Shown here: positions 43,042-52,175 of the stretch, piece by piece
Layout: each line of letters begins with the position of its first letter
Position numbering within the stretch: the stretch's first letter is position 1
Source of the DNA: Eledone cirrhosa
Lineage: Eukaryota
Direction of reading: 5' to 3'
DNA: 64,000 nucleotides
Assembly: GCA_964016885.1 (NCBI GenBank)
Contig: OZ024744.1
Location: 114,080,001-114,144,000, forward strand
Position numbers and translations under genes: made by a program
The notes under the pieces: model-generated
Databases searched by the model: none
Seen by the model: only the letters and a program-made list of their open reading frames with translations
Told to the model about the DNA's origin: nothing

Positions 43042-45660
43042 TAGTGTTTAGCTATATATTAATATGTTAAATCTAATACTATAGTGTTTAGCTATATATT
43101 AATATGTTAAATCTAATACTATAGTGTTTAGCTATATATTAATATGTTAAATCTAATACTATAGTGTTTAGCTATATATTAATATGTTAAAACTAATACT
43201 ATAGTGTTTAGCTATATATTAATATGTTAAATCTAATACTATAGTGTTTAGCTATATATTAATATGTTAAATCTAATACTATAGTGTTTAGCTATATATT
43301 AATATGTTAAATCTAATACTATAGTGTTTAGCTATATATTAATATGTTAAAACTAATACTATAGTGTTTAGCTATATAATAATATGTTAAAACTAATACT
43401 ATAGTGTTTAGCTATATATTAATATGTTAAATCTAATACTATAGTGTTTAGCTATATATTAATATGTTAAATCTAATACTATAGTGTTTAGCTATATATT
43501 AATATGTTAAATCTAATACTATAGTGTTTAGCTATATATTAATATGTTAAATCTAATACTATAGTGTTTAGCTATATATTAATATGTTAAATCTAATACT
43601 ATAGTGTTTAGCTATATATTAATATGTTAAATCTAATACTATAGTGTTTAGCTATATATTAATATGTTAAAACTAATACTATAGTGTTTAGCTATATATT
43701 AATATGTTAAAACTAATACTATAGTGTTTAGCTATATATTAATATGTTAAAACTAATACTATAGTGTTTAGCTATATATTAATATGTTAAAACTAATACT
43801 ATAGTGTTTTGCTATATATTAATATGTTAAATCTAATACTATAGTGTTTAGCTATATATTAATATGTTAAAACTAATACTATAGTGTTTAGCTATATATT
43901 AATATGTTAAAACTAATACTATAGTGTTTAGCTATATATTAATATGCTAAATCTAATACTATAGTGTTTAGCTATATATTAATATGTTAAAACTAATACT
44001 ATAGTGTTTAGCTATATATTAATATGTTAAAACTAATACTATAGTGTTTAGCTATATATTAATATGTTAAAACTAATACTATAGTGTTTAGCTATATATT
44101 AATATGTTAAATCTAATACTATAGTGTTTAGCTATATATTAATATGTTAAAACTAATACTATAGTGTTTAGCTATATATTAATATGTTAAAACTAATACT
44201 ATAGTGTTTTGCTATATATTAATATGTTAAAACTAATACTATAGTGTTTTGCTATATATTAATATGTTAAATCTAATACTATAGTGTTTAGCTATATATT
44301 AATATGTTAAATCTAATACTATAGTGTTTAGCTATATATTAATATGTTAAATCTAATACTATAGTGTTTAGCTATATATTAATATGTTAAATCTAATACT
44401 ATAGTGTTTAGCTATATATTAATATGTTAAATCTAATACTATAGTGTTTAGCTATATATTAATATGTTAAATCTAATACTATAGTGTTTAGCTATATATT
44501 AATATGTTAAATCTAATACTATAGTGTTTAGCTATATATTAATATGTTAAATCTAATACTATAGTGTTTAGCTATATATTAATATGTTAAAACTAATACT
44601 ATAGTGTTTTGCTATATATTAATATGTTAAATCTAATACTATAGTGTTTAGCTATATATTAATATGTTAAATCTAATACTATAGTGTTTAGCTATATATT
44701 AATATGTTAAATCTAATACTATAGTGTTTAGCTATATATTAATATGTTAAATCTAATACTATAGTGTTTAGCTATATATTAATATGTTAAAACTAATACT
44801 ATAGTGTTTTGCTATATATTAATATGTTAAATCTAATACTATAGTGTTTAGCTATATATTAATATGTTAAATCTAATACTATAGTGTTTAGCTATATATT
44901 AATATGTTAAATCTAATACTATAGTGTTTAGCTATATATTAATATGTTAAATCTAATACTATAGTGTTTAGCTATATATTAATATGTTAAATCTAATACT
45001 ATAGTGTTTAGCTATATATTAATATGTTAAATCTAATACTATAGTGTTTAGCTATATATTAATATGTTAAATCTAATACTATAGTGTTTAGCTATATATT
45101 AATATGTTAAATCTAATACTATAGTGTTTAGCTATATATTAATATGTTAAATCTAATACTATAGTGTTTAGCTATATATTAATATGTTAAATCTAATACT
45201 ATAGTGTTTAGCTATATATTAATATGTTAAAACTAATACTATAGTGTTTAGCTATATATTAATATGTTAAATCTAATACTATAGTGTTTAGCTATATATT
45301 AATATGTTAAAACTAATACTATAGTGTTTAGCTATATATTAATATGTTAAAACTAATACTATAGTGTTTAGCTATATATTAATATGTTAAATCTAATACT
45401 ATAGTGTTTAGCTATATATTAATATGTTAAAACTAATACTATAGTGTTTAGCTATATATTAATATGTTAAAACTAATACTATAGTGTTTAGCTATATATT
45501 AATATGTTAAATCTAATACTATAGTGTTTAGCTATATATTAATATGTTAAAACTAATACTATAGTGTTTAGCTATATATTAATATGTTAAAACTAATACT
45601 ATAGTGTTTTGCTATATATTAATATGTTAAAACTAATACTATAGTGTTTTGCTATATATT
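43042..45660. repeat. 40-bp AT-rich minisatellite, about 65 copies (ATAGTGTTTAGCTATATATTAATATGTTAAA[T/A]CTAATACT)
   Basis: Near-perfect 40-bp period. Degenerate copies continue to about 45865, and at 46250-46330 and 46945-47110. Confidence 0.99.
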
Positions 45661-45865
45661 ATGTTAAAACTAATACTATAGTGTTAAAACTAATACTATA
45701 GTTATAGTTAACTAATACTAATATGTTAAAACTAATACTATAGTTATATATTGATATGTTACAACTAATACTATAGTGTTTTGCTATATATTGATATGTT
45801 ACAACTAACACTATCGTGTTTAGCCATGTATTAACCTATATGTTAAAACTAAACTAGTGTTTAGC

Positions 45866-46208
45866 TTCATTTCATCCTCATTTCAATTAAGTCCGCTTTT
45901 TCCCTGCTTGCAAGGATGGGACGGGACTGATACTGGCTTGATTTCTACAGCTGGATGCCCTTCCTAACACCAACCTTATTTACTGTGAGTGCTGGGTGCT
46001 TTTTTGCCGTGGCACCTCCACGACCACTTTGCAGTGGAATGATATGGACCCCAGTCCCTATCATCTCATTTCTACAGCTGAGTAAACTGGAGCAATGTGA
46101 AATAAAGTGTCTTGCTCAAGGAAACAACACATCACCCGGTCTGAGAATTGAACTCACAACCTTTCGATTGCAAGGCCAATGCTCTAACCACTAAGCCATG
46201 TGCCTCCA
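45866..46208 (-). mobile_element. SINE family A, full length
   Basis: Homologous to 38290-38618, with tRNA head GGAGGCACATGGCTTAGTGGTTAGAGC. Confidence 0.9.
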
Positions 46209-46437
46209 TAGCTATATATAAATATATAAATATGTATATTAAAATAAAAACCAGTGTTTAGCTATATATTAACAAACATTAAAACTAATCTAGTGTTTAA
46301 ATATATATAAACATATGTTAAAATATAAACTATATGTAAACAAAGTAAGTATGTTTGGAACACGGCGAGTAAAATTTATAATTGAAATAGAAATAGAAGC
46401 TCTGCCATAGTATTTTTGTCTATAATATAGTCTAATA

Positions 46438-46605
46438 ATTGTTTCTACTTTTGGTACAAGGCCAGCAATTATCCAGTGTATTACTGGTACTTTATTTTAT
46501 CGACCCCATAAGGATGAAAGGCAAAGTTAACCTTGGCGGGATTTGAACTCAGAATAGCAAGGGCCATAACTCTATGTGTCAAAGCATGGCGTCCGACCCA
46601 TATAA
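46438..46605 (-). mobile_element. SINE family B
   Basis: Reverse complement of the family B core (AAGGATGAAAGGCAAAGTTAACC on the plus strand). Confidence 0.85.
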
Positions 46606-46695
46606 AGGCACCGAACAGACAAAGATGGGTATCGAAACCCATCTTTTTCTGTTCAGTGGCTTTATATGCCCCATTATTAGACTATATTATTAGAG

Positions 46696-46882
46696 GGTGG
46701 TGGATTGGCAGTATCGGTGGAGGGTCAGACGCCATGCTTTCCAGCATAGTTACGTCCCTTTACGATCTGAGTTCAAATCCCGCCGAGGTTGACTTTGCCT
46801 TTCATCCTTACGGGGCCGATAAAATAAAGTACCAGTAATGCACTGGGTAATTGCTGGCCTTGTGCCTAAAGTAGAAACAATT
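46696..46882 (+). mobile_element. SINE family B with an ~18-bp target-site duplication
   Basis: ATTATTAGACTATATTAT occurs at 46673-46690 and 46880-46897. Confidence 0.9.
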
Positions 46883-47110
46883 ATTAGACTATATTATAGA
46901 CAAAAATACTATGGCGAAGCTTCTATTTCTATTTCAATTAATTAACTATAGTGTTTAGCTATGTACTAATATATACAATGAAACTAATATTATAGCATTT
47001 AGCTATATATTAACATATATGTTAAAAGTAATACTATAGTGTTTAGCTATATACTAATATATATGTTAAAACTAATACTATAGTGTTTAGCTATAATATA
47101 TATTAATATA

Positions 47111-47148
<38 letters not shown>

Positions 47149-47264
47149 TAAAAGGAATTCCAACTTTGTCTGATTTATTCGTTTTATTTACAATCCTTTA
47201 AAATTTATAATGGTATTAGAAAGAATGAAATAGTATGGTAGAATATTAAATGTTAAGTGTTAAT

Positions 47265-47303
47265 TGAACAAGTACTTTCATGCTTTCGCAATCTTCAGTT
47301 TCA
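47265..47303 (-). ncRNA. Minimal type I hammerhead ribozyme
   Basis: Minus strand: TGAAA-CTGAAGA-T-TGC GAAA GCA-T-GAAA-GTAC-TT-GTTCA, with one stem I mismatch. Confidence 0.75.
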
Positions 47304-47388
47304 TATTGTATGGTGACAGTCAAGTTTGCAATTTTCAACTGTTGAAAATTGCATTGAAAATTGCAAACTTGACTGTCACCATACAATA

Positions 47389-47427
47389 TGAACCTGAAGA
47401 TTGCAAAAGCATGAAAGTACTTGTTCA
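47389..47427 (+). ncRNA. Minimal type I hammerhead ribozyme
   Basis: TGAAC-CTGAAGA-T-TGC AAAA GCA-T-GAAA-GTAC-TT-GTTCA. Stem I is TGAAC/GTTCA and stem III is the palindrome AGTACT. Confidence 0.85.
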
Positions 47428-47585
47428 ATTAACACTTAACATTTAATATTCTACCATACTATTTCATTATAATACCATTATAAATTTTAAAGGATTGTAA
47501 ATAAAACGAGTAAATCAGACAAAGTTGGAATTCCTTTTATTAATATAATCTTCTATACACAATCATAGACACCCGTGTATATTTA

Positions 47586-47617
<32 letters not shown>

Positions 47618-48668
47618 CAGGTTAAACTAATATTGTGTTTAGCAATATATATGTTTATATATGTTTAAACTGTAACTGTTAGACGTAAACTAAGATATCT
47701 ACATCAACTTTTTCCAATTCTCTGCTGTCTGTTATAAGAAAGAAATATCACCATTTAATTATCTCCAATTCTTCATTTACAGAGTTCCGCCATCTGATTG
47801 GCTGAAAATGAAAAAAAAGAGACAATTTTATCAATAAAATGATTGAACAGATAAAAAGAAAGAATTTTGTGAAAAATAAAAGACAAATGTTGTAATTCTT
47901 TGATGTTTGTTAAAACTATGAAATATGTTAGTAAAATATCACACACTAATTAGTGTACTAATTAGTGTACTAAACTGTAGAATTGTATCACTTCTCAGAG
48001 GTAGTAGTGTGGAATAGTTCTTCAAATATTCAAGCTTTTATAGATGCAATGTATAAAATATTGCTTCTATTGTTCCAGCCCAGAAAAACAGACCAAATCA
48101 ATGACCCCAATGTGACAGCGCCTGTGATCCCCAAAGACCACAAACACTGGCACATTCATATTTGTCCCATGAATGACTTCATGAATAAAAAAGTAAAAAG
48201 AATTAAAAAAGAAAACAAATTGGCATTTCGACTGAAATGTTATTTTAAAAACCAATTACGGAGAAATAAAATAAATTTTTGTCTTACTCAACAGTTCCTG
48301 GAACACTGGGGTTATCTTCAGGCAATGCTGGTACTTGGACACTTTTACTGAAAGACAGAAACATAGAATGAAAGGAGCTGATGATCAGATGAGATGAAAG
48401 AAACAATGTTTCCATTGGTCTTTCCATTACTGATACTATCTGTCAGTCACAACTCCTGACAGTAGAAAGGAGCTGATTTATAAACAACTACATTTTCTCA
48501 TTCTCAACTACTTTGCTGGCATGCAATGTTGTGCATTAAGGTGATATTGCACTTGTAATATATAAATATATATATATATATAAATTAATAATTTATACTG
48601 CTCAGAAGCGATTCTTAGAGCCGAAATAATTGTAAATGACCCCATTGAGTGTAAACTCTAAGTTATAT

Positions 48669-48700
<32 letters not shown>

Positions 48701-48858
48701 TAAATATACACGGGTGTGTATAAGTGTGTATAGAAGATTATATTAATAAAAGGAATTCCAACTTTGTCTGATTTACTCGTTTTATTTACAATCCTTTAAA
48801 ATTTATAATGGTATTATAATGAAATAGTATGATAGAATATTAAATGTTAAGTGTTAAT

Positions 48859-48897
48859 TGAACAAGTACTTTCATGCTTTCACAATCTTCAGGTTCA
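48859..48897 (-). ncRNA. Minimal type I hammerhead ribozyme
   Basis: Minus strand: TGAAC-CTGAAGA-T-TGT GAAA GCA-T-GAAA-GTAC-TT-GTTCA. Confidence 0.82.
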
Positions 48898-48970
48898 TAT
48901 TGTGTGGTGACAGTCAAGTTTGCAATTTTCAACAGTTGAAAATTGCAAACTTGACTGTCACCACACATTA

Positions 48971-49009
48971 TGAACCTGAAGATTGTGAAAGCATGAAAGT
49001 ACTTGTTCA
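48971..49009 (+). ncRNA. Minimal type I hammerhead ribozyme
   Basis: TGAAC-CTGAAGA-T-TGT GAAA GCA-T-GAAA-GTAC-TT-GTTCA. Confidence 0.82.
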
Positions 49010-49124
49010 ATTAACACTTAACATTTAATATTCTACCATACTATTTCATTATAATACCATTATAAATTTTAAAGGATTGTAAATAAAACGAGTAAATCAG
49101 ACAAAGTTGGAATTCCTTTTATTA

Positions 49125-49152
<28 letters not shown>

Positions 49153-49160
<8 letters not shown>

Positions 49161-49713
49161 TTTATGGTATATATCAATAATATTTATGTCTTTATTAGAT
49201 GATTTGAGGATCATTAAATCACTGATCGTATTGAATTATTGTTGATTGCCTTTCAATTTTTGCCACCTCACTACTAAATTCCATAGAGATATACTCTGCA
49301 ACTAATTAAGCCCAGTCAGCATTGAGTAGGACAGTGAGGGACATGATGTTGCAATACTATACATTGTGTGAAGTACCTTGTGGTATTGTGATTTGGTCAA
49401 CCTATATATATATATATATATATATATATGATTCTCGCTGAATTTATATTTATATATATATATAGGTTGACCAAATCACAATACCACAAGGTACTTCACA
49501 CAATGTATAGTATTGCAACATCATGTCCCTCACTGTCCTACTCAATGCTGACTGGGCTTAATTAGTTGCAGAGTATATCTCTATGGAATTTAGTAGTGAG
49601 GTGGCAAAAATTGAAAGGCAATCAACAATAATTCAATACGATCAGTGATTTAATGATCCTCAAATCATCTAATAAAGACATAACTATTATTGATATATAC
49701 CATAAATTAATTA
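49153..49713. repeat. ~560-bp palindrome with a (TA)n-containing centre
   Basis: TAATTAATTTATGGTATATATC...TTGGTCAACCTATA and TATAGGTTGACCAA...GATATATACCATAAATTAATTA form arms of about 250 bp that are nearly identical. Confidence 0.92.
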
Positions 49714-50510
49714 TGGTGATCAAGAAAAATTAATACTGTTAACCTTAAACAATTTATAACTGGTTCAGTCATTAAAAACATAGAAAAATATTGATAATTA
49801 CACAAACTAGTGTGAGTTTCATTAAAACCTGGATTATTATTAGTAATTACGTGTTTATTCCAATAGTCAGTTGTAACATCTAGAACTGTCACATGGAACG
49901 TCACTTGGTATTGTCCAGTAAAACAGCACAGGGAAAAACAATACATTTTTTCCAATATACACAATGTCAGAATTCACCAGCTCTCCTTCGTGTGTCTGTC
50001 ACCACAATGAAGATAGTAATATTTCTGTGTTATTCAAAAGAGGTGGGAAAAGGGAAGTAATTCACTCGCCTCTTCAGGGGAAGTATTCAGACTGGGAATT
50101 TTAACTTGAACTTAAATTTAAATTCAAAATGCAGGAGTTAAATGTCCATTTTCCATTCTAACATGAATTAGTTGAGTTGTCTCGTTTTGAACAAGTCAAA
50201 TCAGGTGACCATGTCTTGCTCATACAAACTGGGAAATTTTAAGTGCAGCTTGTGTTTCGTGGAGACACTCAAAATTACTGGTCCTAGATAAAATTTATTA
50301 AACAAGAAATCTGAAATTTTCTCATCCTGTCTACATAAATATGTTCATTCTTTCCTTTACAATAACTATGAACCAACTTAGTCAACTAATAATTGTTAGT
50401 ATTTGACTATACCTTACATCTAGGTTGGTTATTAAACCTTTAGTTACCAACCCAGCCAAAACCAGCTCTGGTTCTATGAAATAAAACCACCTATTTTAAA
50501 GAGTTCTTAT

Positions 50511-50784
50511 TTAACCCTTTAGTTACCAACCTGGCCAAAACCAGCTCTGGTTCTATCAAATAAAACCACCCATTATAAAGAGTTCCTATTTAACCCAGCC
50601 AAAACCAATTTCTGTTTCTATGAAATAGAGCCACCCATTTTAAAGGTTTCCTATTTAAATTCAAATCTTCCAACATAATTCATCTTAGCAATGAAATAAT
50701 TAATAATTTTAGTAAATTCCTCAAAATTCTTCATTAATTAAAATAGAGTGTATTTCATTAGAAATGTGAATATGAAAGGGTTAA
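50511..50784. mobile_element. piggyBac-like MITE remnant with ~80-bp internal repeats nearby
   Basis: TTAACCCTTT...AAAGGGTTAA ends. Repeated CCAACCCAGCCAAAACCAGCTCTGGTTCTAT units at 50432-50660. Confidence 0.5.
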
Positions 50785-51224
50785 ATAGATATTGTTACAC
50801 TTTTACCAGTGACCATTATATATCAACTTCTGTCTGCTTTTAATCCTTACTTATGTACCCCTCTATTAATACTTTCTAAATCTATATTTGTCTATATGTT
50901 GTTTCTTTATAAATACGACAATGCCAGATTTAACCTTTGCTATATCTCCATCGGTCACATTTTCATTGTATTTTTTTTTTATTAAATCTAAACATGATAA
51001 ATATTTGTTAAGTTATGTTCCAAACACCAACTTAATATAGAGAAAGATATATTACTAAATGATTCTAAATTCTTGATTATTTTCAAAATTAATGGAAAAT
51101 CATAAGCAATGTTTTAGAAATATGGTAACAAGATGGTGAAGCTGTTTATATTTAGGTAATGCCTATCATCATAATATTATGTAAGAAACTTTGTTATGTT
51201 ATGTTCCAAACACCAACTTAATAA

Positions 51225-51442
51225 TGGTTCCTGATTTAGGCAGAAGGCCAACAACTTTGGGGCAGGGGAAAATCGATTAGATAGTACCCAGTATGTTACT
51301 GCTACTTTATTTTTTGACCCCGTAAGGATAGAAGGCAAAGTTAACCGTGGCAGGATTTGAACTCCGAACATAAAGGGCTGTAACTATATGTCACAAAGCA
51401 TGTTGCCCAACACTCTACCAATTACTACTAATTCCCCCGCCC
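51225..51442 (-). mobile_element. SINE family B, diverged
   Basis: GACCCCGTAAGGATAGAAGGCAAAGTTAACC...GGATTTGAACTC on the plus strand. Confidence 0.75.
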
Positions 51443-51879
51443 TAAACACCAACTAAATAATGAAAATGTTAGTTAAATTACTAAATTCCTCCAAATACTT
51501 GATTATTTTCAAAATTATTGGAAAATTATTGGCACTTCTTTTTCCTTCTACTCCTCCTCCCAACCCTCCACCCTCCACCCCACATCCCTCTTCCTCCTCC
51601 CCACCCTCCTTCTTACCCCTCTACTCCCCCACCCCCTTCTTTGGTAACCTCTTGTGATTTAACACTAACTATTGCTGATGTAGACTTAAGCTCAACAATC
51701 CTATGTAAACTACAGTTATGTTGTTTCACTAAATATTTGTTCATATAGATGTTAAACAGTGATGTTGATGATGATGACGATGATATATATATATATATAT
51801 ATATATATTTATTTATATAACTTGTTTTTGAATTTGTTTTGTGAGATTTCTTATCTGAACACATGTGTTGAAACAGATA

Positions 51880-52175
51880 TTGTTATACTTTGGTATGGTC
51901 ATGTTGCCAATAAAAACACATGCATCTGTTGGTTTTCACTTCAATTTATTATGAATTTCTGGTTGGTTGGTTCTATAACCAGAGGTTGTTTACATATTGT
52001 CAAAGCTCTTTCATCACACATTCTGTAACCTCCTCAGTGACTGGGTTTTTATTTTGTGTGTCTCTCCTTTGTTCTGTCCTACACCATCTTGTGTGTTGTG
52101 TATTGTGTGTTGTGTGCTTAGTTTGCACATGCGTTACATCTGGGTGTGTGTGTTTATTTATTTATTTATTCATTT
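51880..52175 (-). mobile_element. Penelope-like element terminal fragment, an inverted homologue of 57780-58060
   Basis: Shared sequence in opposite orientation (matching ORFs in the track) and contains a hammerhead. Confidence 0.7.
51999..52041 (-). ncRNA. Type I hammerhead ribozyme
   Basis: Minus strand: GTCA-CTGAGGA-G-GTTACA gaatg TGTGAT-GAAA-GAGC-TT-TGAC. Confidence 0.72.

Follow-up and report, generated by a model that had tools for sequence, protein, structure and literature searches.

Hammerhead-bearing palindromes in Eledone cirrhosa are debris of a Penelope-like retrotransposon whose short copies begin at recurrent positions

Insertions of Penelope-like elements (PLEs) are described as carrying an inverted copy and a tail on one side only (PMC8557442, PMC3846280), and for the PAc Poseidon element of Anolis both target strands are reported to be cut and extended, with two internal reverse transcriptase (RT) start sites bounding the tail (PMC11167929; this and the other papers are cited here for the available parts of their text). 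Pairs of minimal hammerhead ribozymes on opposite strands, 100 to 700 bp apart, are also already in print (PMC4209133), while the accessible account of PAc records no RNA-seq ends at the hammerhead cut (PMC11167929). Here we report palindromes of this kind in Eledone cirrhosa. Their architecture is already known, and they are ordinary PLE debris; the contribution of the Eledone family is the spacing of a TATA box at the major 5' end and a set of blunt joins between element ORF and predicted cut.

The window, a stretch of 64,000 nucleotides (contig OZ024744.1, positions 114,080,001 to 114,144,000), contains two near-spacerless palindromes, copy 1 (47141 to 47547) and copy 2 (48740 to 49128), which an earlier note on this DNA had described together with four hammerhead-like cores; all are present. 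We number arm positions from hammerhead C3 as 0, which puts the predicted cut between +28 and +29. In copy 1 a tail-less pLTR arm on the minus strand (47142 to 47342), whose 5' end at 47342 corresponds to a probable transcription start at -44, meets a tailed pLTR arm on the plus strand (47354 to 47546, starting at -40) across a head-to-head junction that contains a short repeated piece of the arm start (47343 to 47353). The tailed arm runs into a 36-nt PLE tail (47547 to 47582, plus strand), an AC-rich stem-loop that continues into (CT)n/(TA)n. Copy 2 has its 36-nt tail (48704 to 48739) and tailed pLTR arm (48740 to 48933) on the minus strand and a tail-less pLTR arm starting at -44 on the plus strand (48932 to 49128), the arms overlapping in the commonest junction form, centred on 48934. 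Because the tail is on the plus strand in copy 1 and on the minus strand in copy 2, the two copies are mutually inverted.

The arms of copy 2 are mismatched at 2 of 194 positions; those of copy 1 are distinguished by a 4-nt indel and four substitutions, and the middle of that copy contains a 12-nt duplication. The near-palindromic layout thus holds for the arms and fails for the symmetry, the tail beyond one arm having been overlooked in the earlier reading. Copy 2 is flanked by (TA)n at 49129 to 49155. Satellites with units of 48 bp, organised in higher-order repeats, and of 40 bp occupy 1 to 29037 and 43042 to 45685 of the window, and copy 1 is located in the decayed end of the latter, where its (TA)n flank (47092 to 47141) lies within units of 40 to 44 bp and a target-site duplication is not readable. 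Two other inverted structures, neither with a hammerhead core, lie nearby: an almost perfect inverted duplication adjoining copy 2, whose 273-nt arms enclose (TA)n (49153 to 49714), and inverted pieces of another dispersed repeat, which we take to be SINE-like, around a short central hairpin (46379 to 46940).

These neighbouring inverted duplications would suit an assembly or chimeric-read artefact, or a local inverted duplication unrelated to retrotransposition, as would the fact that no public contig spans a whole palindrome (contigs of four runs were aligned to copy 1). We nevertheless consider such an origin extremely improbable: arms differ from one another by 1 to 9% and only one is tailed, junctions at 1,148 loci gather at one position of the element, and the same ends recur in solo arms. 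The public contigs did show loose ends on copy 1 that coincide with the junction and tail positions.

The four cores read as minimal type I hammerheads, located in copy 1 at 47389 to 47427 (plus strand, predicted cut after 47422) and 47265 to 47303 (minus strand, after 47270), and in copy 2 at 48971 to 49009 (plus strand, after 49004) and 48859 to 48897 (minus strand, after 48864). The CUGANGA and GAAA boxes, helices I and II, an NUH triplet and a palindromic helix III are present, and helix I is intact in three of the four: the TGAAC ascribed to every arm is found in three, the left arm of copy 1 having TGAAA on the minus strand, so that the inner stem I pair is lost. With its loop of 2 nt, helix III is predicted to require two copies, which would pair over 6 bp (-4.8 kcal/mol for the AGUACU self-duplex). 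The base of helix II is U-U in place of G10.1-C11.1, and the triplet is CUU. That pair is highly conserved in minimal type I hammerheads according to the accessible text of PMC4209133, and an axolotl family with U-U at the same place is described in PMC7229834. An AATAAA with a putative role lies at 47500 to 47505 on the plus strand of the copy 1 pLTR, 73 nt past the core, and one is found in each of the four arms, in agreement with the earlier estimate of about 70 nt.

The centroid fold shows helices I and II, and the monomer fold is no more stable than shuffled sequences (z = +1.2 and +0.7). An Rfam scan of 44000 to 52000, the check proposed in the earlier note, gave no hammerhead match at E<=10 and returned solely hairpin-type miRNA look-alikes scoring below their cut-offs. 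With no Rfam match and no fold excess over shuffles, the hammerhead reading draws on the core motif and its position in a PLE pLTR. A loose hammerhead pattern has 7,297 matches in the genome; the first 100 all belong to the present young family and lack compensatory changes, and no diverged hammerhead family was found among them. Positions -12 to -6 of the arm (48964 to 48970 in the window), just 5' of stem I, are hypervariable, and identical multi-base variants recur there on different subfamily backgrounds.

Coding sequence lies upstream of some arms, and each arm is a pLTR of about 200 nt from a 4.2-kb Penelope-like retrotransposon with RT and GIY-YIG domains. The proposal that the palindromes are Penelope-type termini set head to head, each bearing a minimal type I hammerhead whose stem III is palindromic, is therefore supported. 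Two complete insertions (L031, L032) consist of an inverted truncated copy, a 5' pLTR, the tail, the ORFs and a 3' pLTR in a unit of about 4.2 kb; partial-tandem pLTRs with an inverted 5'-truncated copy are seen in these and in L247, L248 and L249. In the full-length element 4.2 kb separate two sense cores, and the ATG lies 238 nt after C3.

Two overlapping frames are found in the parent (L248:682-4343; also L031, L032, L247, L249 to L254 and L260). The first, of 449 aa counted from its ATG, has no convincing Pfam match. The second matches RVT_1 and GIY-YIG in Pfam and contains the DKG and YLDD motifs, a CX4CxxC linker and endonuclease motifs; this RT-EN frame of 775 codons is open in L247, L248, L252, L254 and L260. 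It lies in -1 relative to ORF1, with an in-phase T TTT TTA slippery heptamer within the 90-nt overlap and a spacing identical in 14 of the 16 arms read; no stimulatory structure stood out. A frameshifted ORF1 is an optional PLE feature in PMC8557442, and we dropped the two-ORF arrangement as a novelty on that ground. The linker of the CX2-5CxxC type before the endonuclease and the (TA)n targeting are Neptune traits, and the parent fits a Neptune-type EN+ PLE, an assignment made by motif rather than by tree. A PDB sequence search gave no match, and the only NCBIfam match, to a group II intron RT, was weak and scored far under the cut-off. The supplements of PMC4209133 and PMC8557442 may already list this family or a close relative.

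A search of the 3.0-Gb genome for the core pattern finds 5,817 exact matches, against none for the reversed control. We examined the first 100 exact matches (76 loci in the first 65 Mb of contig C1), a sample that requires an exact core and in which BLAST ends are uncertain by a few bases. The 5' ends of 64 of these arms fall in a 13-nt window, -46 to -34, with the mode at -44 (25 arms); five lie in -33 to 0, two in -100 to -47 and 29 further up. Across the genome, 5,440 matches to a pattern just downstream of the site compare with 1,259 that read through it, the two patterns being unequal in length and in subfamily coverage. In 40 of 43 read-through arms, TATAWAWR starts exactly 31 nt above the A at -44, a spacing kept across two sequence types with different spacers. 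Both the TATA motif and the -31 rule are textbook values. With most 5' ends gathered there and a TATA box 31 nt above, the -44 site is probably a transcription start, as read from genomic sequence.

The site also resembles a 3' splice acceptor. An RT stop is another possible reading, since the site forms the 3' strand of a short hairpin in one subfamily. We also considered that a first exon might be spliced on at the hot spot and rejected this, as no recurring upstream exon sequence was seen in solo arms. Among arms with TA flanks, a cap-derived G before the start was not found (31 G, nine of them in one local array, versus 43 C). The Penelope element of D. virilis has a TATA-less internal promoter (PMC2377424), from which the promoter proposed for the present family would differ.

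At the other end of the 100 arms, 47 terminate after the tail and 41 before it, two continue into the ORF, and 10 have no end motif. The tail is confined to a single arm in 26 of 28 short palindromes (loci chosen by likeness to copy 2, together with loci from the 100-arm sample). When head-to-head pairs are taken regardless of size, this holds for 43 of 49 (p = 6e-8), the partner in two of these being a 5' pLTR and not an insertion end. The 36-nt tail folds as an AC-rich stem-loop (z = -1.95), and both 3' ends lie within TA-like sequence that could pair with the target. By analogy with the anole element, the two 3' ends may correspond to two internal RT start sites.

Full palindromes occur widely in the rest of the genome, the near-spacerless junction pattern being present at 1,148 loci. 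About 18 junction forms were counted by hand in the first 50 of these, four forms accounting for 20, 9, 3 and 3 loci and the other 15 loci being private; the commonest form is found on several subfamily backgrounds. The abundance of junctions, the one form shared by 20 of the first 50 loci, and the co-variation of arms could suggest that the palindrome is a non-autonomous ambisense retrozyme or MITE, transcribed or excised and reinserted whole, as the earlier note had proposed. The comparison of palindromes with one another argues against it: in 378 pairs of the 28 short palindromes, arm asymmetries are shared in register 44 times, no more than in the opposite register (51). No convincing non-simple repeat was found as a target-site duplication in the flanks of the 28 palindromes, which are (TA)n, and the two ends are asymmetric. 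Foldback and MITE elements would call for symmetric terminal repeats, a fixed target-site duplication and copies that descend as units; the palindromes have a one-sided tail, variable junctions and uninherited asymmetries, and the parent is a retroelement. A retrozyme would call for head-to-tail units; these pairs are head to head with one sense core per strand and without head-to-tail repeats.

Arms that begin at -44 contain no TATA box, and RNA reading through a palindrome is predicted to form a hairpin of -306.9 kcal/mol with a single sense core per strand; such a transcript would bury the ribozyme in a duplex of about 195 bp. The long hairpin RNA with one sense core on either strand, as first described, is thus retained. 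Its operation as a working ambisense ribozyme is unlikely, since the core is buried. With variable junctions, uninherited asymmetries, a TATA box outside the arms and an autonomous, coding parent, the proposal of unit copying finds no support, and we think it very unlikely. In one region (G000:C12:16979169-17443356), nine solo arms with the same flank motif recur about 40 to 65 kb apart, probably as a large tandem duplication.

Each palindrome is instead a pair of head-to-head pLTR copies, which we consider likely to have been made afresh at each (TA)n site by run-off priming from both cut ends. The source RNA would begin at -44, with an RT start signal some 200 to 260 nt from its 5' end, and the endonuclease would cut both strands of a (TA)n run. 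One target end could prime after the tail, and the second end before it. If the front copy of the signal is used, the cDNAs would run off the RNA 5' end and have a fixed length, and two such short cDNAs could join head to head through 1 to 5 bases of microhomology or short templated patches; both would usually come from one source RNA or locus. Priming at the 3' pLTR would give long arms of variable length. Such a product lacks its own promoter and is probably a dead end.

The main rival is fold-back self-priming, in which a cDNA that has reached the RNA start folds and copies itself as the second arm, and which Arkhipova et al. favour for PLE palindromes (PMC3846280). The two most frequent junction forms, with 20 and 9 of the 50 loci counted, fit a cDNA ending at -44 with its last base pairing 4 to 5 nt back, two annealed cDNAs and one folded-back cDNA look alike at the sequence level, and arms usually have markers in common. 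This last point can be put in numbers: at non-CpG diagnostic sites, in the 40 pairs (of 49) whose alignment covers 150 nt or more, the arms of a pair differ at 2.55 sites on average, compared with 6.39 for shuffled partners (minimum 5.15 in 2,000 shuffles), and nine pairs have a rare allele common to both arms where 0.25 are expected. Yet only 8 of the 40 pairs are identical at diagnostic sites, several differ at 5 to 8 of them, and one locus (L011) joins arms of two different subfamilies. L011 is the one clear join of this sort, and gene conversion at a later time could account for it. The blunt joins and templated patches found at junctions, and the presence of the tail on either arm relative to the junction asymmetry, also speak against fold-back, and one fold-back alone gives no target-primed second end. 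We regard fold-back self-priming as improbable, and prefer run-off from both cut ends.

The co-variation of arms pointed out earlier is therefore real beyond chance, but the later homogenisation invoked for it is not needed: a shared source at insertion followed by decay, and perhaps conversion, is enough. In both window copies the arms differ at common polymorphic sites. The arm variant quoted as an example is a CpG, of which TGTG and TGCA are the two deamination products; TGCG is found in 97 of the first 100 of the 5,817 core matches.

A second class of 5' ends lies at the predicted hammerhead cut. All 80 matches with a non-T base before +29, a pattern blind to breaks preceded by T, were read and comprise 37 point changes and 43 breaks exactly at +29, where the arm adjoins a head-to-head partner (19), other flanks (15), the element ORF (6) or a deletion (3). 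The six ORF joins represent five independent events at different ORF positions, and microhomology is absent in the four events resolved by script. ORF pieces are fused directly to the base after the predicted cut in L263 (5758-6980), L262, L264, L265 and L266; in L263 a unit from +29 to +873 forms a tandem repeat, the outcome expected of a template jump or of a circular RNA. At L260:254-8962 two almost complete elements make up an 8.7-kb palindrome with its junction at the predicted cut (+28/+37), the exact base being ambiguous through hairpin microhomology.

Head-to-head junctions near the cut fill 226 rows of matches; a control window placed about 25 nt further downstream yields 40 (23 loci). 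By hand count of the first 100 of the 226 rows, both arms start at +27 or beyond in about 52 to 53 of 61 loci, versus about 17% under even spacing, and only two of the 61 are centred on the perfect 8-nt palindrome just above the cut. Ends could arise here with no cleavage at all: a natural 4-bp hairpin at +28 to +40 possibly produced them and accounts for about 34 of the 61 junctions, and breaks are also numerous at +31 (35 of 66 read, of 119 matches). We had taken +31 as a negative control for +29 and discarded it as too close, about half of its 35 breaks being one microhomology junction. An RT pause at the ribozyme fold is another possible source. Judged from these genomic ends, the derivation of the minor class from hammerhead-cut RNA, that is, from cleavage in vivo, appears evenly balanced, and we see an equal chance for and against the wider reading of the short copies as a fossil map of two RNA 5' ends, a major one at a TATA-directed start and a minor one at the hammerhead cut. 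If true, this would amount to genomic evidence for germline cleavage by a minimal PLE hammerhead, and would imply reverse transcription of the cut RNA and its blunt joining to internal ORF positions, either by a template jump or by way of a circle.

The regularity of the ends bears on how PLEs make inverted ends with a one-sided tail and on whether weak PLE hammerheads cut in vivo, subjects of the accessible parts of PMC4209133, PMC11167929 and PMC8557442. Since the family is young, with intact RT-EN frames and two sharp classes of 5' ends, it offers exact positions for 5'-end sequencing and reconstitution. Neither start-site run-off nor cut-site ends of PLE insertions were found in the titles and opening abstract lines of the papers listed by literature searches outside subscription journals.

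As far as the available texts go, the Eledone family is closest to Neptune-type EN+ PLEs (PMC8557442, PMC3846280) in its partial-tandem pLTRs, its inverted 5'-truncated copy, a tail at one end (30 to 40 bp in those elements), (TA)n targets, a C-terminal GIY-YIG domain with a CX2-5CxxC linker and an optional, frameshifted ORF1. Unlike theirs, its copies are mostly a pLTR alone, with 5' ends fixed below a TATA box and not randomly truncated. The cores resemble the minimal hammerheads of PMC4209133 in their type I core, short helix I, small palindromic helix III and predicted action as dimers, and differ in having U-U for the usual G10.1-C11.1 and a CUU triplet; that paper reports an absence of in vivo evidence, whereas Eledone has a genomic class of ends at the predicted cut. 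With PAc (PMC11167929) the family has in common two 3' ends at the tail borders, probably corresponding to the two internal RT starts of PAc, an AC-rich stem-loop and AT-rich targets, PAc extending both strands. The PAc ORF starts inside the hammerhead and the Eledone ORF well downstream of it, and unlike those of PAc both Eledone 3' ends lie in TA-like sequence able to pair with the target. Metazoan non-LTR retrozymes (PMC7229834; 10.64898/2026.07.22.740005) are likewise short non-coding hammerhead repeats related to PLE pLTRs, but they form head-to-tail tandem arrays that yield circular RNA, whereas the Eledone palindromes are head to head with one sense ribozyme on each strand.
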